A stretch of 64,000 nt of DNA from Amphiscolops sp. MND2022 (lineage: Eukaryota): the NCBI GenBank assembly GCA_964187785.1, contig OZ076413.1, positions 40,858,001 to 40,922,000 of the forward strand, read 5' to 3'. Made by a program: the position numbers and the translations under genes. The stretch's first letter is position 1. Each line of letters starts with the position of its first letter. Below the pieces are notes generated by a model. That model worked only from the letters and a program-made list of their open reading frames with translations. It was not told where the DNA came from and ran no database searches. Shown here piece by piece: positions 2,800-31,200 of the stretch.

Positions 2800-3774
2800 A
2801 TTCCAGCAAACCTCACGACTTCGATTATCATCATCAAAAACCAACATCCCCTTAACCCTAATTGACCTGGACGTTTCTGCAAATTTCCAAGTCTGATTCA
2901 AAATTTTATATCTTTGAAGTCTCCACAACTAGACTTACGAGAAATGAAAAAAAAGCGCAATTAAAAGGTCTGGTATTGGGCTTTCATTTAGGTCGGGGGA
3001 GGGGGGAGGGGCTGTCGAAACGCATAATTCAGATGTTTTTTTTCAGGTATCGCCGCTGCGCGGGACTTGTGGTAGCAGGATAAGAATGAGTTTGTTGCAC
3101 AGACTTGTTGTGGAAGGGCATGAAATTGGTTTTTTCTATTGATCAAAGACAGAGAAAACTGGATTCCGCTAATAATTTTGGAATAACTTTTTGTGCAAAA
3201 AACATGTTTCTCAGTTTTGATGTTTCTCCTAAATAAACACACGCTGTTAACGACTGCAACTAATAACAGCGCTGTCAACAGCATAGCTGCTTACATCCCT
3301 GTCCGTTGCACAGAATGCAAGCACAAATCCGATGTTAGAACATTTTAAGTGACCCCGATTTTCTCCAATCTCGAATCATGCCTCAAATTCTCGTTCCTCT
3401 CAAAACACCTTCCCAATACAACAACTTTCACAAAAGAGACCACACCTCAAACAAAAATGAGGAGTTGTTAAGTCCGATGATGAGCCATGGGCGAATATCA
3501 AGAAGATCGAGCTGGAGACGCTCACTGAAGAGCTGCACGCAGAAGCGGGTCAGGGTGCTAGTACCTGCCTTTGTTTGTGGTTACCCTCTTCTTCGGTTGC
3601 AGTAAAGTTGTTAATCGGTAAGTTCAGTGAGTATTGAATTGCATGTTTGAATTAATGTCCCAGCTGCTCGCAGTCTATTACACGTTTTAACAAACGAAAT
3701 TCATGAAGCTGCTGTATATTTCTCAATGTGATTTACATCGCATCCAGCGATACAAAATTCGATCCTAAATACTC

Positions 3775-4090
3775 AGTTTATGTGTGTGAAGGTTGATGGA
3801 CCAGCTAATTTATGAGTAATATAGCTGAACTGCTAATTGAACTTTCTTGAAAAGCTGTCTTTAGAAGAGAATCAACTAGATAACATATGACAATTCTTAC
3901 TAACAACAGAAGGAACGTGATTGAAGCTCACTGAAATCAGTAGAAAGTGTGAATGAATCAAGCATGGCAATTGAACTTTACAATAGAAGTGTGAAATCAT
4001 ACGTGCTACATTCCCATTGGATATTCAAGTTTCATTATTCATATATGATCGAACGAAATTTTAGCTTAAGTATAATGACGAAACTGAACA
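3775..4090 (-). repeat. 3' LTR of BEL/Pao element (316 bp)
   Basis: Near-identical to 9523-9842 (about 5 substitutions, two 2-nt indels); purine-rich PPT AAGGCGCGGAGAA adjacent on the minus strand (4091-4103). Confidence 0.95.
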
Positions 4091-4139
4091 TTCTCCGCGC
4101 CTTGAAAATAATTCAACTATAAATCGCTTCAGATCAATC

Positions 4140-5033
4140 ATGGAGGATCGCTCATACTTCGAAATTGTTGAGTATTGGAACAGGCGAAAGATCCCAGACC
4201 GACTGGCAACGCCCGTGGAAACTTCATCAAACGTTGCAAGTTGTACACGGTGGATGAAGTGGATCGGGCAAAACTTTTGTACCAGAATAAGCCAGTCATT
4301 CGATATTCTGAATTGCGAGGTGAGGTAGAAGCCATGCATGGATCGCTACAGTTGGCACAACATAGGATGGGGGTGAGGACCATTGAAATCCGGCTGCGTG
4401 AGAGATGGTCCTGCATCGGTTTGCGGAACATTTTGTTGAAGATGTGCGAGTCCTCCTGCAGTCGTTGTCTTTTGACAGCCAGTGGGACCCAATGGTTCGC
4501 GAGAACCGTTAAAGGCTTGAATCCAGTAACCGTGACAGTCGCTAAGGCCTTATGCGAGAGACTGGGAGTTGCCTCCAGTTGTCGCTGTCAATAAGCCCTT
4601 CAAGCAGCCGGTCAACCTTGAAGCGGTTACTCCTGATGGAAATTGTGTCTTCCGAGTGCTCGCGAGGGCAATTGGAGCGACAGAAGAAGATCATGAACAG
4701 CTACGAAGGGCAGTGTTGGAACACATGGAGAAGCAGGAAGTCATTGTGGGGTTGCGATGTATTTATGGCCAAGCAGAGCTTGATCGATGCATGGCACATC
4801 GATCATCTGAACGAGAATCCAATGTCCCAGTTTGTGGCCTCGTTATTAGTGCTGCAGCGCATCTCCTGGGCGTTGACATTCTGCAGTACTGGAGATCAGT
4901 AGATGGCGCTCAGGAGTGGTCTCTGATGCTTGCGTCCAAGAAGTCGAAGGTGTGGGCGGAGCATCAAATTGCGATGCGATATCTGGAGGGTGGGAGCGTG
5001 GACCACGTGGACTTGGTGCTGTCATTCGAATAG
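4140..5033 (+). pseudogene. Antisense extra ORF in BEL element: integrase-type H2C2 zinc-binding domain + OTU-like cysteine protease (two compensating frameshifts)
   Basis: ATG 4140. Frame 4175-4594 has MHGSLQLAQHRMGVRTIEIRLRERWSCIGLRNILLKMCESSCSRC (H2C2-like). Frame 4569-5033 has PDGNCVFRVLA ... DHVDLV (OTU Asp/Cys box and His box). AATAAA at 5064-5069. Confidence 0.8.
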
Positions 5034-5159
5034 GTGAGCATACAATTTAGTTCTCGAAAACTGAATAAACTGCTTGTCATAACTTTATACGATAAATAGG
5101 TAACTAGATAGTCCACAATAATAAAATATCCGTCATCGATGATAGGTTAAAGAGTCCTT

Positions 5160-7390
5160 TCAACTGATGGTCGGATGCATGGTAGGATTGGACTGACTGG
5201 TATCCGTATGCATGAGCATGGTAGGATCGGACCGACTGACATCCATGAGCATGGTAGGATTGGACCGACCACCTTGCTCATCACTAGTCAGCGCTGCGTC
5301 AGTTAGCTGCTTGGGGAGTAGGCGAAGCTTGCTGAGGGGCCTGACGAAAGATGATTTGTCATTGAAGACATTCGCTGCTCTGGCTATTTTGTCATTTCCC
5401 AGATATAATTCTTCGATTTTTGCGCGTGGCCAATGAAGTGGTGGAACTTTGTCTTCCATTATGAGGACGACATCTCCTGCCTTTGGTGCATCTGTAGTAT
5501 CTCGCCAATTTGTTAATGGCTGCAGGTTTGAGAGATACTCTCTGGACCATCTATTCCAGAACTGTTCCGTGAGGGTTCTAACTAACTAGAATCTTTTTGG
5601 GAGAGAGATTCCTTTTCGGGAATATGATCTTTCCGGAAGAGCTGTGAATTGACTGCCAATCAGGAAGTGGCCTGGCGATAGAGGAGCATCATCATTCGGA
5701 TCGGAGGACATCGGTGATATGGGTCGTGAATTGAGGATAGCTTCTATCTGCGTCAGGAGCGTGCTGAATTCCTACATTGTCAGAGTTGTATTACCCATCA
5801 CCCTGCGGAGATGATGCTTTGCACTCTTTACACCTGCCTCCCATAATCCACCAAAGTTGGGTGCTCTTGGAGGTATCATTACCCAATTCATGCCGTGCAT
5901 GGTTGCATAATGGGCCAATGACTCATCTTCTCTTCCCGCTAAGATGTCATTGAGCTTCAGCAAGTCATTGCGAGCTCCAAGGAAATTCGTTGCGTTGTCA
6001 CTGAAGATGACTTCGGGGGCTCCGCGCCGTGCGACGAAGCGCTTTAGTGAGGCAATACATGCTTCCTTTATCAAAGATGACACCGCTTCCGGGTAGCCTT
6101 CGTGGTGAAGCAAACGAAGACACATGTATGTCTTGTCGATGATCTTGCTGCTGGGTTTGGCCTTTGTCTTGAAGGGTCCCCCGAAGTCGATACCCGTGTT
6201 CTGGAACGGTCGTCCTGGGGTAATTCTTTCTTCGGGGAGGTCCCATTTTTGGATGGGTCTTGTCCTGAGCAAATCGATGACATGTTGTACAGTGATGCAA
6301 AATCTGTCTGACATATTTTCGCCCATTAATAATCCAGAATCGTTCACGAGTCTGATAGAGCGTTGTTTGAGCTCCAGCATGGAGTGCTCGTTTGTGGTAG
6401 TGTTCAACTATCAGCTTCGTAAGGTGAGTCCTTGGGAGAATGACTTGATGCTTGAAGTTTTCATCTAGATTTGATTGGTAAGTCCTCCCCCCAACTTTGA
6501 TGAGGCGTGATTCCTCATCAAACAAAGGATCTAGGGGGTAGAGGGGCTGTTTTTCAAAATAGGTTTGCCTTGCTGCAACATTGCATACTCCTGTGGGATT
6601 TGCGTCTGTTGTGTCTTGTGAATCAAATATTCTTCCGCATTTGATAAATCATTTGGCTTGAGTGACACATCGGCTTTGGTTTGCAAACATTGAATGAACT
6701 TGAATACCCTTGCTGTAGTTCCCAGAAGTCGCTGAAAGCTTGAGAACCGGTCGATGTCCACTAGTATCGTTGGCGGTTGAGTATTGTTCGCTGCTACTAG
6801 AGACTTGCGTTGCTCTGGTGGATTTTCCAATGAAGATGTAGGTTGAATAGGCCAGTAGTTTTGTCCTGTACCAGAAATTCGGGTCCTTTCCACCAAAGGT
6901 CGTCTGTAAGCAGTTTGTTTGCATGTGTCCCGCAGCTGGCAATATCAGCAGGGTTGAGTTGACTTGGAACATGACGCCAGTTACTCGGTGAGATGAGTTC
7001 TTGGATGTCACTCACACGATTTGCAATGAATGTGGTCCATTTCAAAGGAAGCGCATTAAGCAATGCAAGAGTAATGGTACTATCAGACCAGGCGAAGACT
7101 TCGTGTCATGGGAGAGACAATGATTGAATTGAGAACAATACTTGTTGATAGAGCTTGGCTGCAAGTTGAGCGGCGCAAAATTCGAGTCGAGGCAGTGATA
7201 TAGTCTTCACTGGTGCAACCTTTGATTTGGATGTGACAATTGCTGATTGCCTTGAGCCATCCGCTTGTTCAGTGACTACATAGATGAATGCAGCGTATGC
7301 TTTGATGGAGGCGTCTGCAAAACAGTGAAATTCCATCTTGATGTAATTGTCCGTTGTTACACGATGTGGTATTGAGAGCCTCGTCAATAC
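5160..7390 (-). pseudogene. BEL/Pao pol 3' half: RNase H (Pao peptidase A17-type), integrase (H2C2 + rve core), DUF5641-like tail; frameshifted
   Basis: FHCFADASIKAYAA; WTTFIANRVSDIQ; LWWKGPEFL; HYHKRALHAG...CTTC; GIDFGGPF; IFSDNATNF; PNFGGLWEAGVKSAK; PPLHWPRAKI. Confidence 0.92.
5175..5270. repeat. Short (~33-bp) tandem repeat in the integrase C-terminal tail
   Basis: catgagcatggtaggat(t/c)ggacc repeated about three times. Confidence 0.7.
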
Positions 7391-9482
7391 TGTCTAGTCG
7401 GATTTGTCGGCTTCAAATTCTGGTATCAAGTTTTAAATCTTGTCTTTGCTTGTGAAAGTGATTCACCCAGTGGCATGGTCGAATTGGACCGAGGTAAATC
7501 CACCACGAAGCGACCATCTGGCTTGCGTTTAGTTGTGTCGTCGAAGTGTTGTTCGACCAGTTGTTATCAGGCGAAAGCTTGTGTTTCCTGGGAACTTCTT
7601 CGATCTCCCAGTACCTTTTCAATTCATTGTCATGCGCTCGATTGAAATTCACAGCTACGTGTGAGACTTGATTGTCGGCCACAGTTCCGGAGGCTACATA
7701 CCCGAAGACTGTGTTTGTGAATACTGCCACTCCATTGAGCTCGACTCCAGGGAGGCGAAGCGACTCGTAAAGCTCAGCTCCAAGGATGATGTCGATTTCA
7801 GAGGGTTCATTGAAATTTGGATCCGCCAGTCTTAAACCATTGGTTGGTTCAATCATGGGGAAAGGTGCTGATGGCACTAAACCAGTCAGGTTCCCTTGCA
7901 AAACCAAAGCTGACGTTTTGACTGTCGTCCCAGAGATTGGTAAATGCATGTTGCATCTTCCGGCTGCAGCAGTTTCTGTTTCCTGCTACTGTGAAATTCA
8001 TTGCTGCTTCCTCCAACGGAAGTCGGAGTTTCTTCTTGCATTGATTGGACATTAGATTCAGTTGTGAGCCTGAATCCAGAAGTGCTCGACACTTTACCGG
8101 TTTCCCATTTTTGTGGAGAACGTCGATCAAAGCTGTTTGGAGTAGCACTTGTCGTTTGTGTAGAGTGTGATTGATCAAAGCATGCGCATTGTTGGATTGA
8201 GGCTTCGTATGCTCCTTATCGTTCTTGTCCTTGTGTAAGAGCGTATTGTGTCTGGCTCCACACGTTCGACACGTTGAGGTCGATGGACATTGTTTTGAAA
8301 CATGGCCTTGTTGGAAGTAGTTGAAGGATGCTTTTTTGTGATTGACCAATTCACGTCTGGCATCGACGCCGAGACCTTTGAATGTTGGACAGTGGAATAC
8401 CTTGTGGGCTTCTTCGCAGCTGTAGCAATTGTGTTGGTTGATGCTCAATGAATGAGGCTTACCCTTGTTGAATGACTTGTTGTGACCTTTGCTCGGGCTA
8501 CTCGGTCCATTTCTACCATCGAGGTTGAATGCGTTGTGATCACGCATGACGTCTGCAGCCTCCAGTGCTTGGCATCGCGACTGCAAAAATCTGTATAATT
8601 GATCGTATCTCTGAGGTTCTTTTCCAGGATTAGCCAATTCCCATTGTTTCAGGGATTCTCGGTCAAGCTTTTCTACTATGATGTAAACAATGAAGATATC
8701 GGCCATTTCATTCATGTCGAAACCCATTGCTTGAAAGGCCAATCTTTGTTCATGGGCGTGTTCCATAAGTTTTCGTAGACCGCGACCATCATTTTCTTCC
8801 ACGCAAGGAGCCTTGAAGAGAACACTGAGATGTTCTCGTAAGATCACTCTCTTGTTATCGTATCGATCTGCGAGTAATTTTTGAGCAACATCGTAATTTG
8901 AGTCAGTAACAGTGACTGTGACAAACAACTTTTGAGCCCGCCTTTCAAAGCACTCTTCAGGTAAAATAACTTTTGCGAGTCACTAAGATCGGCGTTGTTA
9001 TGAACGGCACCTTGAAATAAATCAAAGAAGGACACCCATTTTGTGTAAGTGCAATCGAATGTCGGTAAATCAAGTCGGGGTAATTTCAAATGGTCTGTAC
9101 TCTGTTGTCGACTAACATTTGCCGATGGTGGTGCTTGTTGTCGTTGAGAGGCGACTTCGGCTTTAATTGCCCGTTCCAGTGAGTCTTTGGCAACTGCGAT
9201 GGCTTGGAAGATTTTCTCCTGATATTCAAAACATTTTTCGTCATCTGCAGGTATCTCAACAGGTGATAATTGGTCATGAATTTGGCCATCGAGGCTTGTA
9301 AGATCACTCAGCGTTTGATTGAGAACTTGTTCTGAGCTAACCAGATGTTGTCTGACGCCATTGGTAATGTTGCTTGGTTCTGTTGATGCCAGCTGTTCGA
9401 TTTTTGTAATCGTCCTGGTGGCTCGTGCTCTGACGGCACCTCGTTTTGCTTTGATGCGATTCAAGTCTTCTGTGGATTGCAT
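7391..9482 (-). pseudogene. BEL/Pao gag (DUF1759-like, CCHC knuckles) and aspartic protease; frameshifted
   Basis: ATG 9482; LKLPRLDLPTFD...WVSFFDLF...LSDSQKLFYL; CYSCEEAHKVFHC, CRTCGARHNTLLH; CRALLDSGSQ; LADPNFNEPSEIDIILGAE. Confidence 0.92.
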
Positions 9483-9501
9483 TTTGTCGATGGTTATCTA
9501 T

Positions 9502-9519
9502 GCCCCACGTTGGGCGCCA
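9502..9519 (-). promoter_or_regulatory. Primer-binding site complementary to the tRNA-Lys(CUU, Lys1,2-type) 3' end
   Basis: Minus strand TGGCGCCCAACGTGGGGC, 3 nt inside the 5' LTR. Confidence 0.9.
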
Positions 9520-9522
9520 AAA

Positions 9523-9842
9523 TGTTTATGTGTGTGAAGGTTGATGGACCAGCTAATTTATGAGTAATATAGCTAAACTGTGCTAATTGAACTTTCTTGA
9601 AAAGCTGTCTTTAGAAGAGAGAATCAACTAGATAACATATGACAATTCTTACTAACAACAGAAGGAACGGGATTGAAGCTCACTGAAATCAGTAGAAAGT
9701 GTGAATGAATCAAGCATGGCAATTGAACTTTACAATAGAAGTGTGAAATCATACGTGCTACATTCCCATTGGATATTCAAGTTTCATGATTCATATATGA
9801 TCGAACGAAATTTTAGCTTAAGCATAATGACGAAACTGAACA
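9523..9842 (-). repeat. 5' LTR of BEL/Pao element (320 bp)
   Basis: TG...CA termini, matches 3775-4090, flanked by TSD TACTC. Confidence 0.95.
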
Positions 9843-9874
9843 TACTCGACATCTAGTCATTGCATTGCCGGATG

Positions 9875-10295
9875 ATCATATTAAATCAATCTAGCAACAA
9901 TAATCACTTGTTAGAGATATATGTCAATGCGACCCTAGAAACAGTCAAAACGACAAACCAGTACTTCCTAGCAAGACCCACCACAGCAACTCTGTTAGCA
10001 GTCCTCAGACAGTCTTCCTTTATGGTCCTTTAAATTCTTAGACCATAACAGCATACCAAGTACTTGGATGTACATACAAGAGCAAAATGCAGACAAGGCA
10101 AAACTCTGGTAGACCTTTACAAATTGCAGATAAGACAGATCTCTAGTACATATTGATTTATTTTCAAGCATGTTCTTTTTCAGTGATCATTTTCAATCCA
10201 GATTCACAAACTTCGACTGCTGAGTATCTATTCCCGGAACCATTGACGGATTTGAAAAAACATCAACAATCACAGTGGTATCTATTCCAGCAAAC
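9875..10295. repeat. ~420-bp dispersed repeat, copy 2
   Basis: Aligns to 1838-2256; its 3' 40-bp motif recurs at 10408-10450. Confidence 0.85.
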
Positions 10296-12599: not shown

Positions 12600-13070
12600 A
12601 ATCAGTGAGGGGAAAATTCAAGAGAGTAGACGAAACTTTTGCGCAAAGAGACGGTTTCGTCTCTTCCCCCTCTGTTCAAAGACCAGTAATAAAAATTATC
12701 GAAGATGCAGTTTCAACAAGAATTATAAACGAATTTTGAGAAAAACTTAATTTCATTCAATCCCTCAGCTACCTGAATGTAAGTTTGTTTGTAACTTAAA
12801 TTTCTCTTATATTACATTTTCTGAAATAAATGGAAAAGCTTCTTAAAGTTGTTTCAAACTAAACTTAACTTAATATTTTGTTGTCATCAATTGACTTTCT
12901 TATTTTCTTCTCTTAGGAAATTTATAGATAACCCAAGAACAAAAACACCAACAATCGCCCCTGCGCATTCAGTCCCAATAAAAATGATTGAGTAAAAACA
13001 AAAGGCGATTGTCATAATGGGGACAGGAGTGGGATCTCTCTATAAACAATAAATTTTAATGATTTTATAA
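12600..13070. repeat. Diverged partial copy of the hairpin-bearing segment of the tandem-array unit
   Basis: gagtagacgaaacttttgcgcaaagagacggtttcgtctc ... caacaatcgcccc aligns to 14595-14990. Confidence 0.8.
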
Positions 13071-13615
13071 AAGACTGTTGTCAACCCCGTAATGTCCGTC
13101 ACTGGCCAAACCCCCTTAGCCTGCTTAAAGCAGTGTAGCCCAGGACTTTGATCCTTGTAGCTCTTTGAAATTCGCCTCCTCGACCTATCAGAAAAGGGTC
13201 CTTTTTCTTCGCTAGCTTCACATGAAACCTAACGGTTAGTCGGTCGTAAAATAAACGGTCAACTAGTAATTTGTTTGTCCATCAATCTGACTTGAAGACG
13301 CGAGAGAATTGAAGTGAATTTGAACTCGTTGAATGAAACTATTTTTAATGATCACCGGTTCAATTAAACATTCCATTGGACCTAAGCATTGAGAAAGCCA
13401 GTCTCCTGATGGTGTTCCTCAGCTGCAGTTTCTATGACACAGGAAGGTCATAGTGCCCACTATAAGAACCTAAATTAGCCTAAGGGGTGCTGGTGAGGGA
13501 AGGCTGCGCAGTCTCTTATCAGTCTAGCGTTACAAGCTGAAGACTGGTTCCAGGAACTTACAGGAGTCCTTACCAGTTGTGAAAATTAAAATGGAGAAAC
13601 AATGAACTAGTGAAT

Positions 13616-16600
13616 CGTATTTTAAAAATTATATTTAAATCAAAACATTTCTAAATTTCTAGAATATAAATAACTTGTTTCACTTACATTATAAACGCCT
13701 TGCCCACACATTCAAAACACTCAAAGGCCAACTAGAAGAAGCTCCGAAGGCCTCCGAAGTAACGTTCAACCTTATGGAAGCAAGTGTAGAGATTGGTCGC
13801 CAACGTGCTGAGAATATTACAGCTTTGGAACGAAATATAGTGGGTTTGAAAGCTCGGCTGAAAACCCTTACGGAAGAAAACCAGTGACTACTCTGCCACT
13901 CATTAGAGCAGAGTGACGAACTAAGCTCTTTACGACTGGAAACAGTTGCTACGAGAAATCATTAGTTAACTGCCAAAATGCTTTGTTATCAAATATCTAC
14001 CTACCACCCATCACTAGAATACGACAACAACCTCTTGTTCCATCTTCTCTGTAGTCCGCCAACCTCAAACCTCAAGAACTGAAGAATTGAAGGAAAACAC
14101 CCGCCACTTGCTGAGGTTGATCCACGCGGACAAAAATTCTAGAGTCTCCCAGCGGTCGCCAAAGTGGTACCGAAAATCAAGGAAGCTCGTAACATACTGA
14201 CAGACCCGACAATCAACAGGATTTACGAATGTTGTGGATCCAAGGTGTACGACATGCGCAAAAGCGCCTAAGGACTTGCAAGGACTGCGACCCGCATGTC
14301 AGCGAATGGCTGGCCGCTTAGTTCGTGGTCGCAAATTTCAAGAGAGGGGGTGGTGTAGCGAGCCAGTCACGAGTCGAGCACTGATTCTATGAGAGTGAAA
14401 AACAAATCGAAAGCAGATGCTAGGTAAATAATTTACCCAGCAGAACTTCTTCCCAATCTATTATCTCTTATGCTTGAGAGTGCTTAACAATTACAATGCA
14501 TAATTAAGCCCTCTTGTGCTGCTTAACAGGAGCACTTCATTCTCTCGGTGTTTATATTATTGATAGATTCAAGATGCTCATTATTAAATTGAAGAGAAGA
14601 GAGTAGACGAAACTTTTGCGCAAAGAGGCGGTTTCGTCTCTTCCATCTCTGTTCAAACAGCAGTAACATAAATTAATAAAGATGCAGTTTCAACAAGAAT
14701 TATAAACGAATTTTAAAGAAAAGCTCATTTTCATTTCATCGCACGGTTATCGAAATGTGAGTTTGTTTGTAACTCGTAACTTGATATTCCCTTATCTGAC
14801 ATTCCTGAGTTAACTATAAAACCTTCTTAAAGTTGTTTCAAACCAAACTTAACTCAATATTTTGTTGTCATAAATTGACTTTTTTCTTAGGTAATCTATA
14901 GAGATAACCCAAGAACCAAAACACCAACAATCGCCCCCCCCCCCCGCATTCAGAGTCCTCATAAAATTGATGGAATTAAAACAAAAAGAGGAGATTGTCA
15001 TACTACGAAATAGCCACCCTGATTGGATTCAGCAGTTTCATTTTTCCTGTGCTTCTCCACATTCTTTTCGATCAATACAATCGTTTAGATAGACTTGAAC
15101 CATTTAGTCATGTTCTGAAGAAAACGAATCCTCCCAAAAGGACCGTCCTGGTCCGACCTTCCAAGTTGAAAACCATTCAGCCCCAACACTGAAATCAGAC
15201 ACTACTTTTCCTTACCCCTTTTGAGATGAAACTTCGTGTGCCTTTCTTCTTGCTTGTACATTTTATAGTACATATTCCACTTTCCATATTTGGAAACTTG
15301 CGCCACAATTTCTCGAGTAGTTTGACTGAGTCACAGTCATCTGCTGTCATCATTCACATTACAGGTGTAGTCATGCACCAATTTGTTTTTCGTGACTCGC
15401 TGCTGTCGTCCCATACACCCGTATTAAAAAATAATATATAAATCAAAACATTTCTAGATTTCTAGAATATAAATAACTTGTTTCACTTACAATATAAACG
15501 CCTTGCCCACACGTTCAAAACACTCAAAAGCCAACTAGAAGAAGCTCAGAAGGCCTCCGAAGTAACGTTCAACCTTATGAAAGCAAGTGTAGAGATTGGT
15601 CGCCAACGTGCTGAGAAAATTACGGCTTAGGAACGAAAAATAGTGGGTTTGAAAGCTCGGCTGAAAACCCTTACGGAAGAAAACCAGTGACTACTCTGCC
15701 ACTCATTAGAGCAGAGTGACGAACTAAGCTCTTTACGACTGGAAACAGTTGCTACGAGAAATCATCAGTAGTTAACTGCCAAAATGCTTTATCAAATGTC
15801 TACCTACCCCACATCACTAGAATACGACAACCTCTTGTTCCATCTTCTCTGTAGTCCGCCAACCTCAAACCTCAACAACTGAAGAATTGAAGGAAAACGC
15901 CCGCCATTTGCTGAGGTTGATGCACGCGGACAAAAATTCTAGAGTCTCCCCAGCGGTCGCGAAAGTGGTACCGAAAATCAAGGAAGCTCGTAACATACTG
16001 AGAGACCCGACTCTCAACAGGATTTACGAATGTTGTGGATCCAAGGTGTACGACGTGCGCAGAAGCTCCTAAGGACTTGCAATGACTGCGACCCGCATGT
16101 CCGCGAATGGCTGGCCGCTTAGTTGCGTGGTCGCAACCTTCAAGAGAGGGGGTGGTGTAGCGAGCCAGTCACGAGTCGAGCTCAAATCCCATAGGAGTAA
16201 ATAACAAATCGAAAACAGATGCTAGGTAAATAATTTAACCAGCAGAACTTCTTGCCAATCTATTATTTATTATGCTTGAGAGTGCTTAACAATTACAATG
16301 CATATGTAATCCCCCTTGTGCTGCTTAACAGCAGCACTTCATTCTCTCGGTGTTTATACTATTGATAGATTCAAGATGCTCATTATTAATTTGAAGAGAA
16401 GAGTAGACGAAACGTTTGCGCAAAGAGAAGGTTTCGTCTCTTCCCCCTCTGTTCAAACAGCAGTAATATAAATTAATAAAGATGCAGTTTCAACAACAAT
16501 TATAAACGAATTTTAAAAAGCTTATTTTCATTCCATCCCACAGTTATCGAAATGTGAGTTCCTTCGTAACTCGTAACTTGATATTCTCTTATCTTACATT

Positions 16601-19600
16601 CCTGAGTTAACTATAAAACCTTCTCACAGTTGTTTTAAACCAAACTTAACCCAGTATTTTGTTGTCATAAATTGACTTTTTTCTTAGGAAATTTATAGAG
16701 ATAACCAAAGAACCAAAACACCAACAATCGCCCCTCCGCACTCAGAGTCCTCATAAAATTGATGGAGTTAAAACAAAAATAGGAGATTGTCATACTACCA
16801 AATAGCCACACTGATTGGATTCAGCAGTTTTATTATTCCAGTCCTTCTCCACATTCTTTTCCATCAAAACAATCGTTTAGATAAACTTGAACCATTTAGT
16901 CATGTTCTGAAGAAAACGAATCCTCCCAAAAGGACTATCCTGGTCCGTCCTTCCAAGTTGAACACCATTCAACCCCAACACTTAAATCAGACACTACTTT
17001 TCCTTACCCCTTATGAGATGAAACTTCGTGTGCCTTTCTTCTTGCTTGTACATTTTATAGTACATATTCCACTTTCCATATTTGGAAACTTGCGCCACAA
17101 TTTCTCGCGAAGTTGACTGGGTCACAGTCAGCTGCTGTCATCATTCACTCATATTACAGGTGTAGTCATGCACCAACTTGTTTTTCGTGACTCGCTGCTG
17201 TCGTCCCATACACCCGTATTTAAAAAATTATATATAAATCAAAACATTTCTAGATTTCTAGAATATAAATAACTTGTTTCACTTACAATATAAACGCCTT
17301 GCCCACACGTTCAAAACACTCAAAAGCCAACTAGAAGAAGCTCAGAAGGCCTCCGAAGTAACGTTCAACCTTATGAAAGCAAGTGTAGAGATTGGTCGCC
17401 AACGTGCTGAGAAAATTACGGCTTTGGAACGTAAAATAGTGGGTTTGAAAGCTCGGCTGAAAACCCTTACGGAAGAAAACCAGTGACTACTCTGCCACTC
17501 ATTAGAGCAGAGTGACGAACTAAGCTCTTTACGACTGGAAACAGTTGCTACGAGAAATCATCAGTAGTTAACTGCCAAAATGCTTTATCAAATGTCTACC
17601 TACCCCACATCACTAGAATACGACAACCTCTTGTTCCATCTTCTCTGTAGTCCGCCAACCTCAAACCTCAACAACTGAAGAATTGAAGGAAAACGCCCGC
17701 CATTTGCTGAGGTTGATGCACGCGGACAAAAATTCTAGAGTCTCCCCAGCGGTCGCGAAAGTGGTATCGAAAATCAAGGAAGCTCGTAACATACTGAGAC
17801 CCGACTCTTAACAGGATTTACGAATGTTGTGGATTCAAGGTGTACGACGTGCGCAGAAGCTCCTAAGGACTTGCAATGACTGCGACCCGCATGTCCGCGA
17901 ATGGCTGGCCGCTTAGTTGCCTGGTCGCAACCTTCAAGAGAGGGGGTGGTGTAGCGAGCCGGTCACGAGTCGAGCTCAAATCCCATAGGAGGAGTAAATA
18001 ACAAATCGAAAACAGATGCTAGGTAAATAATTTAACAAGCAGAACTTCTTCCCAATCTATTATTTATTATGCTGGAGAGTGCTTAACAATTACAATGCAT
18101 AATTAATCCCGCTTGTGCTGCTTAACAGCAGCACTTCATTCTCTCGGTGTTTATATTATTGATAGATTCAAGATGCTCATTATTAATTTGAAGAGAAGAG
18201 TAGACGAAACGTTTGCGCAAAAAGAAGGTTTCGTCTCTTCCCCCTCTGTTCAAACAGCAGTAATATAAATTAATAAAGATGCAGTTTCAACAACAATTAT
18301 AAACGAATTTTAAAGAAAAGCTTATTTTCGTTCCATCGCTCACTTATCGAAATGTAAGTTTGTTTGTAACTCGTAACTTGATATTTTTTTCTTAATAAAA
18401 TTGATGGAATTAAAACAAAAATAGGAGATTGTCATACTACGAAATAGCCACCCTGATTGGATTCAGCAGTTTCATTTTTCCTGTGCTTCTCCACATTCTT
18501 TTCGATCAATACAATCGTTTAGATAGACTTGAACCATTTAGTCATGTTCTGAAGAAAACGAATCCTCCCAAAAGGACCGTCCTGGTCCGACCTTCCAAGT
18601 TGAAAACCATTCAGCCCCAACACTGAAATCAGACACTACTTTTCCTTACCCCTTTTGAGATGAAACTTCGTGTGCCTTTCTTCTTGCTTGTACATTTTAT
18701 AGTACATATTCCACTTTCCATATTTGGAGACTTGCGCCACAATTTCTCGCGTAGTTGACTGAGTCACAGTCATCTGCTGTCATCATTCACTCATATTACA
18801 GGTGTAGTCATGCACCAACTTGTTTTTCGTGACTCGCTGCTGTCGTCCCATACACCCGTATTAAAAAAATTATATATAAATCAAAACATTTCTAGATTTC
18901 TAGAATATAAATAACTTGTTTCACTTACATTATAAACGCCTTGCCCACACGTTCAAAACACTCAAAAGCCAACTAGAAGAAACTCAAAAGGCCTCCGAAG
19001 TAACGTTCAACCTTATGAAAGCAGGTGTAGAGATTGGTCGCCAACGTGCTGAGAAAATTACGGCTTTGGAACGTAAAATAGTGGGTTTGAAAGCTCGGCT
19101 GAAAACCCTTACGGAAGAAAACCAGTGACTACTCTGCCACGCATTAGAGCAGAGTGACGAACTAAGCTCTTTACGACTGGAAACAGTTGCTACGAGAAAT
19201 CATCAGTAGTTAACTGCCAAAATGCTTTATCAAATGTCTACCTACCCCACATCACTAGAATACGACAACCTCTTGTTCCATCTTCTCTGTAGTCCGCCAA
19301 CCTCAAACCTCAACAACTGAAGAATTGAAGGAAAACGCCCGCCGCTTGCTGAGGTTGATGCACGCGGACAAAAATTCTACAGTCTCCCCAGCGGTCGCCA
19401 AAGTGGTACCGAAAATCAAGCAAGCTCGTAACATACTGACAGACCCCACTCTCAACAGGATTTACGAATGTTGGGGAACCAACGTGTACGACGTGCGCAA
19501 AAGCGCCTAAGGACTTGCAAGGACTGCGACCCGCATGTCCGCGAATGGCTGGCCGCTTAGTTGCGTGGTCGCAACCTTCAAGAGAGGGGGCGATGTAGCG

Positions 19601-20497
19601 AGCCAGTCACGAGTCGAGCTCTAATCCCATAGGAGCAATAAATAACATCGGAAACAGATGCTAGGTAAATAATTTAACCAGCAGAACTTCTTGCCAATCT
19701 ATTATTTATTATGCTTGAGAGTACTTAACAATTACAATGCATAATTAATCCCCCTTGTGCTGCTTAACAGCAGCACTTCATTCTCTCGGTGTTTATATTA
19801 TTGATAGATTCAAGATGCTCATTATTAATTTGAAGAGAAGAGTAGACGAAACGTTTGCGCAAAGAGAAGGTTTCGTCTCTTCCCCCTCTGTTCAAACAGC
19901 AGTAATATAAATTAATAAAGATGCAGTTTCAACAACAATTATAAACGAATTTTAAAGAAAAGCTTATTTTCATTCCATCGCTCACTTATCGAAATGTAAG
20001 TTTGTTTGTAACTCGTAACTTGATATTTTTTTCTTAATAAAATTGATGGAATTAAAACAAAAATAGGAGATTGTCAAACTACCAAATAGCCACCCTGATT
20101 GGATTCAGCAGTTTATTTTTCCTGTGCTTCTCCACATTCTTTTCGATCAATACAATCGTTTAGATAGACTTGAACCATTTAGTCATGTTCTGAAGAAAAC
20201 GAATCCTCCCAAAAGGACCGTCCTGGTCCGACCTTCCAAGTTGAACATCATTCAGCCCCAACACTGAAATCAGACACTACTTTTCCTTACCCCTTTTGAG
20301 ATGAAACTTCGTGTGCCTTTCTTCTTGCTTGTATGTTTTATAGTACATATTCCACTTTCCATATTTGGAAACTTGCGCCACAATTTCTTGTGTAGTTGAC
20401 TGAGTCACAGTCAGCTGCTGTCATCATTCACTCATATTACAGGTGTAGTCATGCACCAACTTGTTTTTCGTGACTCGCTGCTGTCGTCCCATACACC
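13616..20497. repeat. Head-to-tail tandem array of four units (1804, 1795, 1642, 1641 bp)
   Basis: Junction catacacc|cgtatt at 15420, 17215, 18857; units are highly similar; units 3 and 4 share a ~150-bp deletion. Confidence 0.95.
13675..14320 (+). pseudogene. Coiled-coil + J-domain-like ORF, array unit 1 (copies at 15480-16120, 17274-17920, 18916-19560)
   Basis: Heptad-rich LKSQLEE...ITALERKIVGLKARLKTL, then EELKENARHLLRLMHADKN...KIKEARNILRDPTLNRIYECCG (J-domain pattern, HPD replaced by HAD). Stops and frameshifts are shared across units. Confidence 0.7.
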
Positions 20498-22047
20498 CTC
20501 TCTCCCACTCTTCTATATTTTCTCTCCGTTGTCAAAATGTACACCCACGATACTTTTGCTCTACATTCTTCAGCAAAGACACTCTTGATTGTCTTCATAA
20601 TGCTGCTGAAAATAATTGAACTAGACGAAGGTGGACGAGATAGAACACTGATAACTTGTTGGAGAACACTGAACAAGATCACAATGACTATTGTGTTATC
20701 TTTTTAATAAAAAGTTTATCATCAACAAGACGCCCCCTATGCACCGTGATATTTTTCGCCTTCATTTGGCGAACAAAAGACACTTAATCGAAAATTTTCC
20801 TCCTTTTCTTCTTATTTTTTTCCACTATCAACAATGGATCTTCGTCATCATCCGCTCCTTCTTAGTAAAACGCTATATTGCTACATATTGCAATACTAGT
20901 ACCTGAAATAGTCTAGTCACTTAGTTACTTGACTATTTTAGTTAAGTGGATGGAGATCGTGGAGATTTGGCAGAATTTGGAAAAAACGCCACACAGATTA
21001 TGATTTTCCTCTCCCATTATATCTGGGTGGAAAATAACAAATTGTGTTTCTCTATAAAGTTTAAACTGGGCAGAAGGAGAGTAGACCCAGCTGAACATGA
21101 GATTCACAAAGTATCGAACGACTGTTTTACAAAAAGACCACACCTGACAATCATATACGCGAAATACACGAAACTCAACCAATTTTCTCGGCCGACTATC
21201 ATGAAACATTCAGGTGTAATTACTTGATATGTATAAAAATTCAAGTAGGAAATGTTACCTTTAAGGTTTGGTATTTTTGATGGATGTAAAAAGAGTCTAA
21301 GTTTACATATGTACAATTTGTTCGAATAATATAATTTTCCCAACATTAAAAAAAAGTGTATTATAATTATTCACGGCAAGGAACAGAATAAATGCATTCA
21401 TTTTTTTCTCAAAAACAGCATTATAATCATTCGTTGCGGCATATGTATCGTAATGATGTATTTTCCGATTCCGACACGGTTTTGAACCGAGAGACATCAG
21501 GCCGACAAGTTGGATCCTTTCCATGAATTGTTGGCCAGATTCAAAATTGTCAGACTAATACAATCACTTTTTTCTTCAATACAGACACGAATGCAACGAA
21601 ACGGATCGGGCAGCTGAAATAAATTTTTGCCTATTTGTTTGCGCAAACTTTGAGCTGTTCTCGGGTTGTTGCATTTCTATTTCAATCCAGGCGAAGCTTC
21701 AAGCTAATCAATTCGTGAACACTCGTTCGTTAAATTCATTCCCTTTAATTGCAATGTATCAAATTAGGAAATTTTCACAGATTTTCCTTCCTCTGTAGAA
21801 AAAAATTGCATTCTACAGCGAGTAATCAAAAATTAAAGCATCAAATAATGAAATGGGATAGGAAATGAGACTGAAATCGTTATCATAAATTTGGTTATTT
21901 CAAATAGCTAAAAACAACTAAATTGGATTATTCAATTAAAAAATTCACCGAAATTCATTTCAAATTCAATTTCGCAATAACAAGCAACGGAAACGGCAGT
22001 TGTAAACCAGCAATGGGATGTAAAAATGGACCCTTGCAGGGTCAAAT

Positions 22048-25200: not shown

Positions 25201-28200
25201 CTGTTACTTTTTTTAAAAAAAAACTAAACCTTTTCACTTCAATGAAAGAATACGATTAGGTAATAATGACCTTTTACTTTCACTTTCTCTCGAAGGTAGT
25301 TGATGGTCTCAGTGAATGATGCATCTTACAATCAGCTGTGAGTGTTAGGTTAGTGATCAACTGAAGCAATATAACACTGCAGTTGAAGCTTGATATCAGC
25401 ACTTCAGAAAAACAAGCCGGGAACGGCCCAAGTCGGCGCCATATCTAAGGCTCAAAAATAGCAAAAGGACTTCAAAGTGTGAAGTATTCTCTTCTGCAGT
25501 ACCCGCTTGAGGAAAAATTGGAAAAAAATTCCGAACTTTTAAAATTTTTTTTCGAATTTTTTTGGTTTCCGGTAAGTCGCATAGTGCCGAAACATGTAAA
25601 AGGGGGCACTCTGGGAGTCTTTGAACATCCATTTTTTGCAAAATAGACAAAAAAAAATGACGGGTGGACTCTTTGGAGATATTTGCGAAAAAAAAGTCTC
25701 ACAAAGCCGAAAAAAAAATTGCACAAAAAAATTTTGGTCAAGGGCGGGACTCGAACCCATGTCCTTCTGCTTGGCAGACCTCAAAAAAGCCGTAACCTCT
25801 ATGCCAAGTGGCAGTGAAGTAGTGTGGCAGTGAAGTAGTGTGGCAGTGAAGTAGTGTGGCAGTAGTGGTAGTTTAGTGTTAGTCGGTCAACTTATAAAAT
25901 TTATAAAATCTGTCAGTTCGTTGGTCTTAAAAAAGTCACTACTATAGTCTGCGTTTTTCTTCGAAAAGCGCCGACTAAAAATAGTAATCATGAGTTTCAA
26001 TAATGAAAAAAGAAAACTCACGCTGAAATATCAGTCATTTTAGTGCTCAAAACTAATTGTCCGCAAAATTATTTGGATATTTCTAGTCTGCGTAACTAAG
26101 AGCACTTATTCTTCTGTCAACTGTGGAAAAGAAGCAAAGAGTTTTAAAAATGCATGTCTCTCAAAACGCTTTTGTTGATAGGCTGGCTGCCTAAATAAAC
26201 AAGACGAGAACGTCTAAAGTCGGCGCTATATCTAAGGCTCAAAAAACGCAAAACATTTTTTTTGGAAAAAAACTTGAAATTTTCGAAAATTTTTCTCTTT
26301 CGGAAAATGTCGCACAGTGCCGAAAAACGTAAAAGGGGGACCCTTTTTGATTTATAAACATGCATTCTGTTGCAAAATAACAAAAAACTCAAAGGGGGAC
26401 CCTTTAGGACATTTTAAAAATTCGAAAAAAAAGCGCACAGTGCCGAAAAAAATCAAAGGGGGGACCCTTTAGTCTCGGCCGGTTTTGTAGGTTACCTTGA
26501 AAAAGTAAAAAACGAAAGGGGGGACCCTTTGCACTAAGTTTGCCTTGGCCGGACTTGGCGCCTTAGGTGGTTTCAGGATTGTTTCTAGAAAGTGGACCGA
26601 TCAGTGTGAGGATTGTAGTCTGAAGAAAAAAAGGTCACTGCTATAGTCCGGCATTTTTCCTTAAAAGGATAAAGCGCCGACTAAAAATGGGCAAATGAGC
26701 TTTTTGATTTTGGTCTCGATATTGCTGAATGTGTTCGTTTTGAACATTATACAGCAGACAGCTTCGAAGTCTACCTACTATTGCATATACATATACACTG
26801 AGGTACTTACTACTGATGAGTTGTGCAAGCTTTTCATACGAAGAGGAGGGGAAGAGAGAATCGGGCAATTCTCTGAAGTACATCTTTAAGGCACCTGTGA
26901 TCACGTGGATGTCGTTCACTTGTTTCAAGTTGTAGTTCGAGTCTGAAACACAAACGAAACTGTCGCAACTCGTTCACGACGAAATCTCAAATCAAATTAG
27001 GACTTTTGGATTGAACAAAAATTTGGAAAATAAATATTCATGTTTCAAGAGATTACGCTCCCTGTCGCAAAAAGTTCATTCCTTTCCGCAGCAGGAAAGT
27101 TTAGAATGGTTACCTTTCAATGCCCGTATGAGTTTTTGAAGTGATGATAAGAAGACTAACAAGACGGGAGCGTCTCAAGTCGGCGCTAACCTAAGGCTCA
27201 AAAAGCGTAAACTATTCAAAATATTCTCAGGACGTTTTATGAAAAACTCACAAAAAAGTTTCGAAACACTTTCGAAAAACCCAACGACCGAAATGGCGCG
27301 CTTAAAGGGGGACCATTTGGGATTTTTCAACATCCTTCCTGTTGCAAAATATCAAAAAAAATTAGGGGGGGATCATTTGATGCAATCCAAAAATTTTCGA
27401 AAAAAAGTCTGTGCCGAAAAGTTAACAAGACGAGAACGCCTCAAGTCGGCGCTATATCTAAGGCTCAAAAAGCGCAAAACATTTTTTTTGGAAAATGTCG
27501 CACAGTGCCGAAAAATGTAAAAGGGGGGACCCTTTTTGATTTATAAACACGCATTCTGTAGCAAAATAACAAAAAACTCAAAGGGGGGACCCTTTGGGGA
27601 CATTAAAAAAAATTCGAAAAAAAATCTCACAGCGCCAAAAAAAATCGAAAGGGGGGGTACGAAACTTCAGTCCCGTCCGGGCTTGTATGTAACGTTGAAA
27701 AAGTAAATGAATGCGCTCCCCGTTTGCCTTTAGCGGTCCAGTAGTTTAGTACTTATTTAGTAGTTGAACGTTAATTTTAACGTTCGTCGCTTCGAGTCTG
27801 TCTTAAATAAAAAAAAAAAAAAGTGACTGTAATAGTCGGGCTCTTTTCTTAAGAAAAGCGCCGACTAAAAACACCTAGATAGCCAAAGGAACATCTTTAG
27901 GATGTTTTCGAGGTTCTGGACGTCGGTTTGTTTTGGACGAGGTTCTGACGTTTCGAGTTATGTCTTGAACATTCGTAGTTCAGGTTGTTATTTTCCGCCC
28001 ATATTTCATATGGGCAAGAGTAGTAATAGCAGGGGGGGTTTAATGATGTTTTGGGCTCCCAACCGAAATTATTCAAAGTCAGAAACCTATCTCACTTTTA
28101 GGGCTCCCAACCGAAATTATTCTAAGACAGAAACCTATCTCACTTTTAGGGCTCCCGACCGAAATTATTCTAAGTCAGAAAGGTTAAAGTTCATTTTAAC

Positions 28201-31200
28201 CATACCGAGCGAAATGTATGCCAATTGTCATGAATGTTTACTAATGCAAACTAATGATATTAAACTATCGAGCAGACCGACTTATATGTATTTGAAACTT
28301 GAATTGAAAGAAATAGCTTCTTATTCATGCATTAATGCAAAGCAAAGAAATTCACTATAAAATTCTAACCTTTCGTCCTCTGACAGCAGCAGCAATGGGA
28401 ATATAAATAAATTTCCGAAAATGAGACATTGATATATTTAGAAGATAATTCTGATTCCCGAAACTGAAAAAAAAACAGGGCCGGCAGTATCTAGATATCA
28501 CAAACCTAGAAACTGTGCTTTCTACATGGAACTTTCCATTGGCATCTTCCAAAGGAATTTTCCATGTTTACCGTTGATGATACGTGTGATAAGAAAAATC
28601 GTCATTATAACTTGAAATCGTCTCCGGAACAGTTAACAAGCCTTACCACTAGGCGCGAAATGACTTCAGTGTTTCGCGAAATACCGAGTAATTATTGGCT
28701 GCTCTTGTTTTCAACGGAAGAATCCCAAATCTACAGTGATGTCTACGAGAAGGACAGCAACTCAAAATCACCAACAAGTCTTTCCAAATTGCTGGAAACA
28801 CTCTCCAATTCTCACAAATGCCAATTCATTGGAAGAGTTCATACTAAAGAGGACTCCACTAATGGATCGCTGGACGAGTTTTGTGAAGCCATGCCTACAA
28901 ATCATTATCATGTTCTCTTGTACCTCCCACAATCAACTAACGCAGAAACAATGTTGAAACAAACCATTTCACAAGTTTTGTCCAATGAACAATGGGCAAA
29001 GGTACGACTTCTCACAGTTTCGTATCCAGAAAACTTTCTGAAAACAGAGACGTCAACTTTTTGTCATAGATCTCTCATTGTAGAAGGGGAGAGAATGAAG
29101 AGTCTAATGACTCGAAAACAACTGAAAGTTTGGGTTGTAGTTTCAACTGCGTTTGGGAACTTAACAGACACAATTCCTTGGGTGACTGTCCCGATAATGA
29201 AAAGGCTTTATACATTTTCCAAAAGCTCGTGGAACTTGAAAAAAGTGATGCGCCTTTCAAGGATACTGTGATATCTTATATTGAACTTTTACAACGAGGT
29301 ATCGGACGACTTTTTCTATCAGAGCACAGTAGAATATTGGATATTGATCTGGGAGTCTCAAATGCTCAATGCATGTGCTTTGAATGTCTGAACCAACCTT
29401 TGCAACTCGACGAAGCTATCGACAACACACCATCAAGCTCTCAACTGTTTTCCCCTTATAATGACACCATAATCGATACTTCATTTCTGTTAAATTTCAA
29501 TTTGGAAACAGTTGGCTTGTTTTATAATTAATTTCAATTTGAAAACAGTTGGCTTGTTTTACAATTCAAACTTTCAGAGAAACTGTAATGTTTTCTGCGA
29601 GACAAATTTGTGAAAATTTTGTGGCAGTTAACTACTGCTTTCCTAAAAACAGCACCACCAAAAACGCTTTCTTAGCAGTATGTCGTTATATAGACGAGAA
29701 TGTTGATTTGAGGGAAGTTAACCTTAAAGCACCATTCGGAGGCAAGATAGGGCCAGGCGATAGTAAGTTGGATAATTATCTAAAGTTTTCAAAAATTTTG
29801 AGGATGCATGCAATTTTCCATGATGCTTATGGGTACATGCGCAGCTTCGAGGAAATTGGCCCAGGTTACGTCTACACTCTCACAAAGGCTCAGTCTTTCC
29901 ACAACAATATGCTACTAGGACATTTCTCAGGAATATCATATTGGTTATTCGTCAAATTGTTCCATCGAGAGCATTTCGATGCTTTTCCATTTTAACAATC
30001 ATTTGTACTTTGAATATTATTCCGTTCAGTTGCATCCTGAAGAGGAGATATATCAATTTGATTCAAAACTACGCTAGGTTATGAGCGGCCCTGATTTGAG
30101 CCATACTAGTGGCTACTACAGTAACTGGTCGTTGAACAACCGAAGCGATCAAGAGGATCAAATCGATCACGGAAATTTATCGGTTCCGAACCTTGAAAGA
30201 ATCATATTCGACCAAACAGACAACGAAAGACCACCCTACACTTTTTGTTGTTGTAATTCCCGAGTCGAAAGGTCGCTGGTGTTGGTCTTTACATTATTTC
30301 ATACTCATTGCAGTTTTTACGTTCTGTATTCTTTTCCTAACTCTTTGTGAAAACGACAACAAAGTTTCCTCCGGGATTCTAGCGATTCTATCAGCTTGCA
30401 TAGGTCATATTTTACCTGGTCCAAAGTCATGAACTAGAGAATCAGTACAAATCCTCATTGTTTCATTTCTGTGGTGGGTCCAGCTGGTTCTGGCAAGACA
30501 CGATTGATTGGAAGGATGATTTGCAACCAGGAAAAAATTTTTCGCCCTGTCTTTGACAAAATACTATACTTTTTTAAACATTACCAGGAACCGTATAGAC
30601 AACTTGAAACAGAATGCCTTGCCAACAAAGTTGATCTGCAACTCATTCAAGGCTTGGAGTGGAATGCGGTCGAGCGAGGAGAAATCTTGAAGCAACATAC
30701 TCTCGTCGTTATAGACGACATGTATGACGAAGCTGCTAACAGCAAGGAGTTTTTGGACCTAGTGATCGCTGGCCGTCATCGCAACGTTCACTTGATGGTG
30801 TTACGGCACAATCTTTTCCAACAGTCCAAATACTCAAAGACGATTGATTTGAATGTGACTCAAATTGTTCTATTCAATAGTCCAAGAGATTCTGAACAAA
30901 TTGGAATTTTGGGACGTCAACTGGGCGAGCGTTCTACTCTACTGAAGGTCTATAAAAGAGCGACTCAAGAAGCATTTGGTCATTTACTGATAGATTTGGA
31001 TGTGAGGAGCAGCAGGAACCTCAGATACTGCTCACATTGCTCTGGCGACGAACCATCCCATTTTTATTGCGCGAGAGACGAACTTTTCATCTCAATCAAT
31101 GATGAATTTACAAAATTACTATACAGTTGATTTATATCTAAAGTTTTCACCTACATTGAAAAAAATTTTCATTTTACATTGTCCAGATAACATATTGAAG

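Follow-up and report, generated by a model that had tools for sequence, protein, structure and literature searches.

The presence, inside a retrotransposon, of a gene that runs against pol and appears to encode a protease raises the question of where such a gene comes from, whether it belongs to the element that carries it and on what its product would act. An arrangement of this kind is found in the window considered here, that is, the whole stretch of DNA analysed, 64,000 nucleotides in length. A preliminary description of this DNA, made from the sequence alone, reported a BEL/Pao retrotransposon with an antisense H2C2 zinc-finger and OTU deubiquitinase gene inside its LTRs, and regarded the gene as a captured and possibly Ginger-derived module.

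The minus-strand element at positions 3775-9842 is a BEL/Pao retrotransposon, an assignment that rests on its LTRs and on Pao-type Pfam domains, the reverse transcriptase (RT) region being absent. Two direct LTRs, a target-site duplication (TSD), a primer-binding site and a polypurine tract (PPT) are all present (Table 1). Moreover, 11 pieces of the gag-pol frames were scanned and gave Pfam matches to DUF1759, Asp_protease_2, Peptidase_A17 (limited to model positions 63-147), Integrase_H2C2 and DUF5641, and the domains follow the Pao-type order of gag, protease, RNase H and integrase. No Pfam match to a reverse transcriptase was obtained among these 11 pieces, nor was an RT motif found in the six frames of the window copy; related contigs depart into other sequence at 7434-7436, where they have loose ends. 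Because the RT is missing, a point that the preliminary description does not mention, the window element has to be considered a dead, internally deleted copy.

The metagenomic contigs used for comparison come from the only runs found to contain the stretch, four biofilm metagenomes of two studies (runs X1-X4, with X1-X3 belonging to one study), each with fewer than one tenth of the sampled words. We take the primer-binding site of the window to be of the tRNA-Lys type and that of the X1 and X3 contigs to be of the Arg type, which presumably reflects a switch of primer tRNA between subfamilies. By contrast, the primers of the Belpaoviridae are given as tRNA-Arg or tRNA-Gly (PMC8742986). In other respects the element is similar to the Belpaoviridae as they are presented in PMC8742986 and PMC3118150, namely in LTRs of 0.2-1.2 kb, a genome of 4-10 kb, a PPT adjoining the 3' LTR, a Gypsy-like domain order and Pao-type Pfam domains. 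The last 35 codons of pol (5163-5275) consist of three imperfect repeats of approximately 36-42 nt with a P-T-M-L-M-like reading, and length variants of them occur in related contigs. A 300-nt repeat with 90% identity flanks the BEL element (1909-2208 and 9945-10244).

Table 1. Coordinates of the BEL/Pao element and of its antisense gene in the window.
Feature	Position	Strand	Remarks
TSD TACTC, left copy	3770..3774		Identical 5 bases at 9843-9847
3' LTR	3775..4090	-	97.5% identity over 320 nt with 9523-9842; plus-strand outer end AG, not TG
Polypurine tract (PPT), adjoining the 3' LTR	4091..4106	-	Plus-strand reading H-S-P-R-L-E, 15 codons before the start Met
TATAAA (4118) and TTCAG splice-acceptor-like site (4128-4132)	4118..4132	+	Putative; 7 nt before the ATG
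Gene, N-terminal half	4140..4573	+	Integrase-type N-terminal extension (YPYY-like), HHCC zinc domain, linker; 77-87% to P0001 residues 1-146
Gene, C-terminal half, predicted OTU-fold cysteine protease domain	4566..5033	+	86% to P0001 residues 149-303
Short non-coding block with AATAAA (5064-5069), likely poly(A) signal	5044..5077	+	
Degenerate gag-pol	5160..9479	-	Pfam matches; pol stop at 5160; RT deleted near 7435
Primer-binding site	9502..9519	-	Other sequence here in related X1 and X3 contigs (loose ends at 9499)
5' LTR	9523..9842	-	Paired with 3775-4090
TSD TACTC, right copy	9843..9847		Identical to 3770-3774

Elsewhere in the window, a Maverick/Polinton occupies 28500-41300, with a Pox_A32 packaging ATPase, an rve integrase, an adenain-type protease, capsid-sized frames and a fragmented B-family polymerase, and sits between host-gene exons for RhoGAP (26641-26973) and PH (61102-61491), both of one gene. 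In the region 12600-20500 a unit of 1.6-1.8 kb is repeated four to five times in tandem, and short frames with a DnaJ domain occur there (15821-16072, Pfam E 7.5e-6). In addition, a tRNA-Gly(GCC) gene lies at 43577-43647, a MULE transposase frame at 49019-49906, and a LINE with RT and endonuclease frames at 51003-55001.

The gene under study lies on the plus strand between the pol stop and the PPT, and converges on pol. Its ATG at 4140 is 50 nt from the 3' LTR, its frame ends at 5033, and AATAAA occurs on the plus strand at 5064 and again at 5120. Compared with the intact protein P0001, the window copy falls into three pieces (4140-4205, 4196-4573 and 4566-5030, in frames 3, 2 and 3); in other words, it is broken twice, near 4196-4205 and near 4566-4573, with a net shift of zero. 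A PDGNC box is present, with its Cys codon at 4644-4646, together with an H-V-D box in which His is encoded at 5004-5006 and Asp at 5010-5012. The start 50 nt from the LTR, the poly(A) signal at 5064, the two compensating frameshifts and the PDGNC and H-x-D boxes had been pointed out in the preliminary description and are found as described. The OTU piece of the window, taken alone, scores E 0.0074 with the Pfam OTU model, which is below the Pfam cut-off, and its best phmmer match in the PDB reaches only E 0.24. At the ends of the segment, inverted or direct repeats of more than 7 nt were not found, the longest shared word being 7 nt.

A search with the unbroken OTU piece retrieved two intact natural proteins, P0001 (303 aa, 86% identity) and P0002 (300 aa, 78%). 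A profile search of 1.84 billion representatives yielded 141 matches, and a second search 15. Within this collection, P0001, P0002, P0006, P0150, P0156 and P0009 belong to a clade of stand-alone proteins of 294-307 aa that are 35-74% identical to one another and that form one branch of the OTU tree with a support of 100/99. The intact natural relatives range from 86% to about 38% identity, with P0006, P0150 and P0156 representing the relatives at 38-45%. P0004 and P0005, carried by contigs of 142 and 729 kb and 91-99% identical to the window pieces, are likely to be further genomic copies. The contigs encoding P0002, P0003, P0006 and P0008 measure 6.4-6.8 kb, which is the size expected of such an element, and P0001, P0002, P0006, P0150 and P0156 are known here as protein sequence alone. 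Several clade members were not matched in the Pfam scan; the relatives above the Pfam cut-off include P0006 (OTU, E 3.8e-6) and P0031 (OTU, E 2.2e-7; Integrase_H2C2, E 1.4e-6). No relative was found by the scans of viral contigs or by the first metagenome scan, and the second metagenome scan gave two loci, L001 and L002, from 163 candidates. L002, with 31 residues matched at E 2e-5 in a fungal-type gene region, is a false match and was dropped.

The relatives make it possible to ask whether the gene belongs to the element. Runs X2 and X3 contain contigs of 1157 nt that span 4090-5237 unbroken, with 155-156 other letters, and an X1 contig spans 4213-5237. In the X2 and X3 contigs, consequently, the PPT, the gene and the end of pol are joined in a copy about 13% diverged from the window. 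A far more distant case is P0018, the OTU part of which is 39% identical to P0001 and 61% to P0156. Specifically, this protein continues in the same frame with 180 residues that match the plus strand of the window at 5395-5934 (44%, E 2e-33), which is the antisense of the BEL integrase C-terminus; the best of 100 shuffles reached E 0.02, and 1 of 170 proteins behaves in this way. Such a read-through indicates that a distant, deleted copy likewise converges on BEL pol. Moreover, P0155 and P0159 (37% and 33% identical to P0001), which were called from an upstream Met, read P-R-L-E 16 codons before the true start, against 15 codons in the window, a spacing read from protein only and with a chance of about 5e-5. 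The antisense slot between pol and the 3' LTR is common to the family members, and the position and strand of the gene are shared across lineages about 60% diverged. The possibility that the gene is a one-off nested insertion can therefore be set aside, as the position is family-wide and terminal repeats of its own were not found.

The family includes one variant that seemingly lacks the OTU half. In X1, a variant contig has 555 letters before 5164, as opposed to about 1070 in the window, and skips 4419-5044, at a depth of 9.6 versus 12.8; a similar skip is present in X2 and X3, and there the full form is deeper, the variant having approximately two thirds to four fifths of its depth. Judging from these contigs, most of the OTU half seems to be missing from the X1-X3 variant, which would retain both the HHCC half and the poly(A) block. 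In addition, P0009, which is nested in the clade, is encoded on L001, a contig of 3692 nt, in head-to-head orientation to a SET-domain frame free of introns, and no match to BEL sequence was found in the 1.8 kb upstream or the 0.9 kb downstream of it. The SET-domain frame (L001:1-1354, minus strand) is uninterrupted over at least 451 codons (Pfam E 1e-11). It presumably resembles H4K20 methyltransferases, and it is perhaps cargo of another large mobile element. Together, the variant without the OTU half and the presence of P0009 outside BEL indicate that the gene is accessory, can be lost and occurs beyond BEL elements too.

Some signals around the gene bear on its expression. Besides the putative sites that precede the ATG in the window, in run X4 the end of a contig carries a TTTCAG 6 nt upstream of the ATG, and an acceptor-like site before the ATG is absent in L001. 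On the other side of the gene, the block at 5044-5077 is matched by the X1 variant contig, whose neighbouring parts do not fit, and the matched block of X2 and X3 ends at 5063. The acceptor-like site and the AATAAA block hint that an antisense message might be spliced and have a poly(A) site of its own; the LTR promoter proposed in the preliminary description would be a guess.

As far as selection is concerned, P0001 and P0002 differ by 75 replacements, 36 of which are conservative (BLOSUM62 >0), versus a neutral expectation of about 33% computed from the codons of the window (p 0.005); the test addresses the share of conservative replacements and is distinct from dN/dS. When the window is compared with P0004 and P0005, which are near copies of it, the conservative replacements number 4 of 23. 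The chance that the frame stays open after 78 neutral changes is about 1%. This pattern of replacements suggests an apparent selection on the active lineages and a decay of the inserted copies.

To trace the origin of the gene, both halves of the protein can be considered. Ginger1 transposases, according to Bao, Kapitonov and Jurka (2010, PMC2836005), are characterized by YPYY, H2C2, DDE and GPY/F elements and by a C-terminal OTU or Ulp1 domain. With respect to the same source, the clade proteins are similar in that a YPYY-type N-terminus, an H2C2 zinc finger, a pre-OTU segment and a C-terminal OTU domain are combined in one protein. They differ in their length of about 300 aa, instead of 500-800, in their location antisense inside an LTR element, in the absence of the DDE core and of the GPY/F motif, and in the loss of W-[GA]-T-x-x-E; at the segment, Ginger1-type TIRs (40-270 bp) and a 4-bp duplication of its own were not found either. 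Among the weaker matches of the searches there are Helentron proteins and Ginger1-like transposases, the latter recognised by Pfam (P0085, P0090, P0126, P0144) or by motif (P0054, P0081), and the idea that the distant matches consist of Helentron domains only was dropped on account of these Ginger1-like sequences.

In particular, a profile of the first 115 positions of the clade, searched against a set of about 200 sequences, matches P0085 over positions 1-110 with E 1.5e-9, as compared with E 0.65 for the element's own integrase. These two values led us to discard the possibility that the HHCC module arose by duplication from the resident integrase. Furthermore, the clade and P0085 both start with M-D/E-D-x-x-Y and both end just past the catalytic His; whereas P0085 enters the DDE core after the HHCC module, the clade proteins pass from HHCC straight to the pre-OTU segment, with about 15 residues in between. 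Since the N-terminus matches a Ginger1-like transposase and not the resident integrase, a Ginger1 transposase devoid of its catalytic core is the likely source, and we consider the gene to be, with good probability, an internally deleted Ginger1 transposase.

The OTU half is less explicit on this point. The OTU tree was built from 42 domains with a recognisable Cys box and, with the exception of P0166, a His box, leaving out unlabelled distant matches, P0018 and fragments. In this tree the clade stands on a long stem branch (1.94 changes per column) in an open fork and is not placed with Ginger1 over Helentron; the union of the clade with the Ginger1 OTU domains is not rejected (p-AU 0.32). 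The original suggestion of a Ginger-derived module is strengthened by the N-terminal profile. P0031, P0086 and P0138, stand-alone proteins from outside the clade that combine an OTU domain with a Ginger-type N-terminus, do not group together, indicating that the deletion of the core may have happened more than once.

The domains of the product were also studied at the level of predicted structure. The AlphaFold2 model of P0001 reached a pLDDT of 91.3 with 80 aligned sequences, an alignment that included 49 other OTU-like rows and thereby favoured the OTU fold, and of 42.6 with 5 sequences. Residues ~160-303 of the model align with OTUD3 at Z 13.3 (VIA), with an rmsd of 3.2 over 125 residues and a Foldseek E of 3.8e-6, and the first 25 rows of the structure search are all of the OTU family. 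Z values of 12.8-13.3 were obtained for OTUD3 (4bou), OTUD1 (4bop) and the vOTU of CCHFV (3phu), and the family profile matches OTUD5 with E 2.2e-6. Residues 2-108 match the N-termini of integrases, with Z values in the middling range for the tool (foamy virus 6.9, Ty3 6.5, MLV 5.2), in agreement with the Integrase_H2C2 match of P0031, with an Atlas value of 0.92 at a low shared-feature count and with the kept H, H, C and C. The product is therefore predicted to consist of an integrase-type N-terminal module followed by an OTU-fold cysteine protease domain. Both domains recognised beforehand are in this way sustained, the H2C2 domain as an integrase-type HHCC module and the OTU domain by the predicted fold and by relatives that pass Pfam, though the window piece alone does not.

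Whether the domain is a deubiquitinase is a different matter. Among the clade rows covering each position, the catalytic residues are kept in 26 of 27 (Cys), 17 of 17 (His) and 16 of 17 (Asp). The W-[GA]-T-x-x-E motif, on the other hand, retains its Trp in 45 and its Glu in 46 of the 49 other OTU rows, and in none of 23 clade rows, where [PNT]-V-C-[GA]-[IL]-V is read in its place. In two bacterial OTUs a conserved aromatic holds the Gly-Gly of ubiquitin, and its mutation abolishes activity (PMC7396840); we infer that this aromatic occupies the same column as the Trp lost by the clade. OTUD5 has a His in the Trp column, which means that Trp itself is not obligatory. Other positions are newly conserved in the clade, namely (P0001 numbering) Cys223 (24/25), His226 (23/24) and Cys238 (21/23), and also His191; Cys223, which P0009 does not have, could possibly build a metal site together with His226 and Cys238. 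Around the catalytic Cys, the preceding Asp is replaced by Asn in 12 rows and the following Arg by Leu in 12 rows, about half of the clade, and the third residue after it is Arg in 13 rows (the window, P0001, P0006 and P0009 included) and Leu or Ile in 13.

Because the Trp and the Glu kept by nearly all other OTUs have been lost by the clade, of the original designation the OTU domain stands and the deubiquitinase is no more than a candidate activity. The conserved triad suggests that the antisense product is probably an active cysteine protease. That its substrate would be ubiquitin or a close ubiquitin-like modifier is a possibility that we rate slightly below even, and the domain may cut something other than ubiquitin. 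Along this line, the same gene with the same origin could have had its OTU domain re-tooled towards another substrate than ubiquitin, for example a protein of the host's defence or the polyprotein of the element itself, with the Cys-x2-His...Cys metal site reshaping the groove. The retention of the triad in the face of the loss of Trp and Glu in 23 of 23 rows, the newly conserved Cys and His residues and the long stem branch would all suit such a change. However, OTU domains grip ubiquitin in widely varying ways (PMC7396840), OTUD5 has a His for the Trp and P0009 is without Cys223, and we regard this re-tooling as rather unlikely. Somewhat less probable still is a bolder version, in which a transposase domesticated by BEL/Pao would have had its OTU domain rebuilt with a Cys/His metal site against a non-ubiquitin host restriction factor and would move between elements, as the SET neighbour in L001 might suggest; if true, the retrotransposon would possess a counter-defence enzyme whose specificity defines a new class.

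The reading that we prefer, and to which we give an even chance, is that the window contains a dead copy of a BEL/Pao lineage with an antisense gene of Ginger1 descent, whose protein would reach the integrase or the DNA ends and act as an anti-restriction protease. The history of the gene would have started with the antisense nested insertion of a Ginger1 into a BEL element, followed by the loss of the DDE core and of the terminal repeats. Transcription would proceed from in or next to the 3' LTR, making use of the acceptor-like site before the ATG and of the poly(A) signal at 5064. The N-terminal modules of foamy-virus and Ty3-type integrases touch viral DNA ends and the integrase core, and the integrase-type module of the antisense product would similarly target it to the element's integrase or to the DNA ends. 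There, the cysteine protease would relieve a restriction of the element by acting on ubiquitin-type marks or on a related substrate, and its action would be of benefit to the element.

A different role for the same protein would be that of a self-limiting regulator, in which the truncated integrase-like product, or the antisense transcript, dampens transposition and the protease fold serves as a binding module. An N-terminal module without a catalytic core, a gene convergent on pol and a variant that seemingly keeps the HHCC half and loses the OTU half are what this role would lead one to expect, and in PMC7264820 and PMC11963269 plant antisense ORFs are proposed as regulators and antisense RNA is discussed. 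Such a regulator is nonetheless improbable: Cys, His and Asp invariant over about 60% divergence fit an enzyme, the distance of the HHCC module from the element's own integrase makes cross-binding doubtful, and with an expected end about 90 nt before the pol stop the transcript need not overlap pol. Finally, that the gene is a passenger without benefit to the retrotransposon, either a non-autonomous Ginger-type insertion or a chance host gene, is very unlikely in spite of the clade member outside BEL, of the stand-alone Ginger-like deletion forms known elsewhere (P0031, P0086, P0138) and of the broken window copy, given the lack of repeats above 7 nt at the segment ends, the same strand and PPT distance in lineages about 60% diverged, and the conservative replacements seen between lineages and not among recent copies.

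The preferred reading, an antisense protease gene of Ginger1 descent at work for its BEL/Pao host, can be compared with what is known of other elements. Antisense extra ORFs in the slot between pol and the 3' LTR are described in plant and fungal Gypsy elements, namely Grande, RIRE2, Retand, PvRetro13 and Boty (PMC7264820 and PMC11963269). The slot and strand are shared with the gene presented here, as is the conservation across copies, and a transcript of their own has been proposed for the Gypsy ORFs; their function is unknown and their origin mostly so, whereas here the host is an animal BEL element, the product shows an enzyme fold that can be recognised and the gene can be traced to a transposon. 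The term OTU has 0 occurrences in either article. No Pfam match to the TRP28 domain (Retand/Grande type) was obtained, and the host element is a BEL and not a plant Gypsy. The slot had been taken in the preliminary description for the place where env-like ORFs sit; antisense extra genes were already known there from these Gypsy elements. As regards BEL/Pao itself, the third gene described in PMC8742986 and PMC3118150 is env-like only, with no mention there of an antisense or OTU gene. More generally, we found no account of a BEL element that carries an OTU gene in the literature searched, the scope of which lay outside Repbase, GyDB, supplements (the BEL files of PMC3118150 may hold unannotated cases) and subscription journals; within that literature, the architecture is as unfamiliar as it had first appeared.

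Transposon-encoded ubiquitin-type proteases are nevertheless known, including the Helentron OTU domains and the VTD deubiquitinases covered by PMC9741609 and PMC6431247. Helentron proteins are the most numerous labelled distant matches of the OTU half; following the same sources, their domains are fused into a giant RepHel protein, in contrast to the stand-alone clade protein. The Helitron-borne VTD deubiquitinases have been shown to be active, and PMC9741609 states that transposon OTU domains had not been tested. The capture of non-env enzymes downstream of pol, shared among unrelated elements, has a parallel in ORF3 of bdelloid LTR retrotransposons, although these enzymes are a GDSL esterase and a DEDDy exonuclease, and OTU has 0 occurrences in the article (PMC5408684). 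Cellular and nairoviral OTUs have the same fold and the same Cys-His-acid order as the clade, but are 12-21% identical to it, and the substrate-gripping motif is replaced in the clade.

Plants have provided most of the antisense genes known in LTR retrotransposons (PMC7264820), and the present one adds an origin that can be read, from a DNA transposase cut down in size, and an active site that can be assayed. In addition, the clade offers a small, stand-alone test case for the question, left open in the Ginger and Helitron papers, of why ubiquitin-type proteases are carried by so many unrelated transposons. A natural OTU variant in which the triad persists without the canonical substrate clamp would broaden the range of substrates open to the OTU fold.
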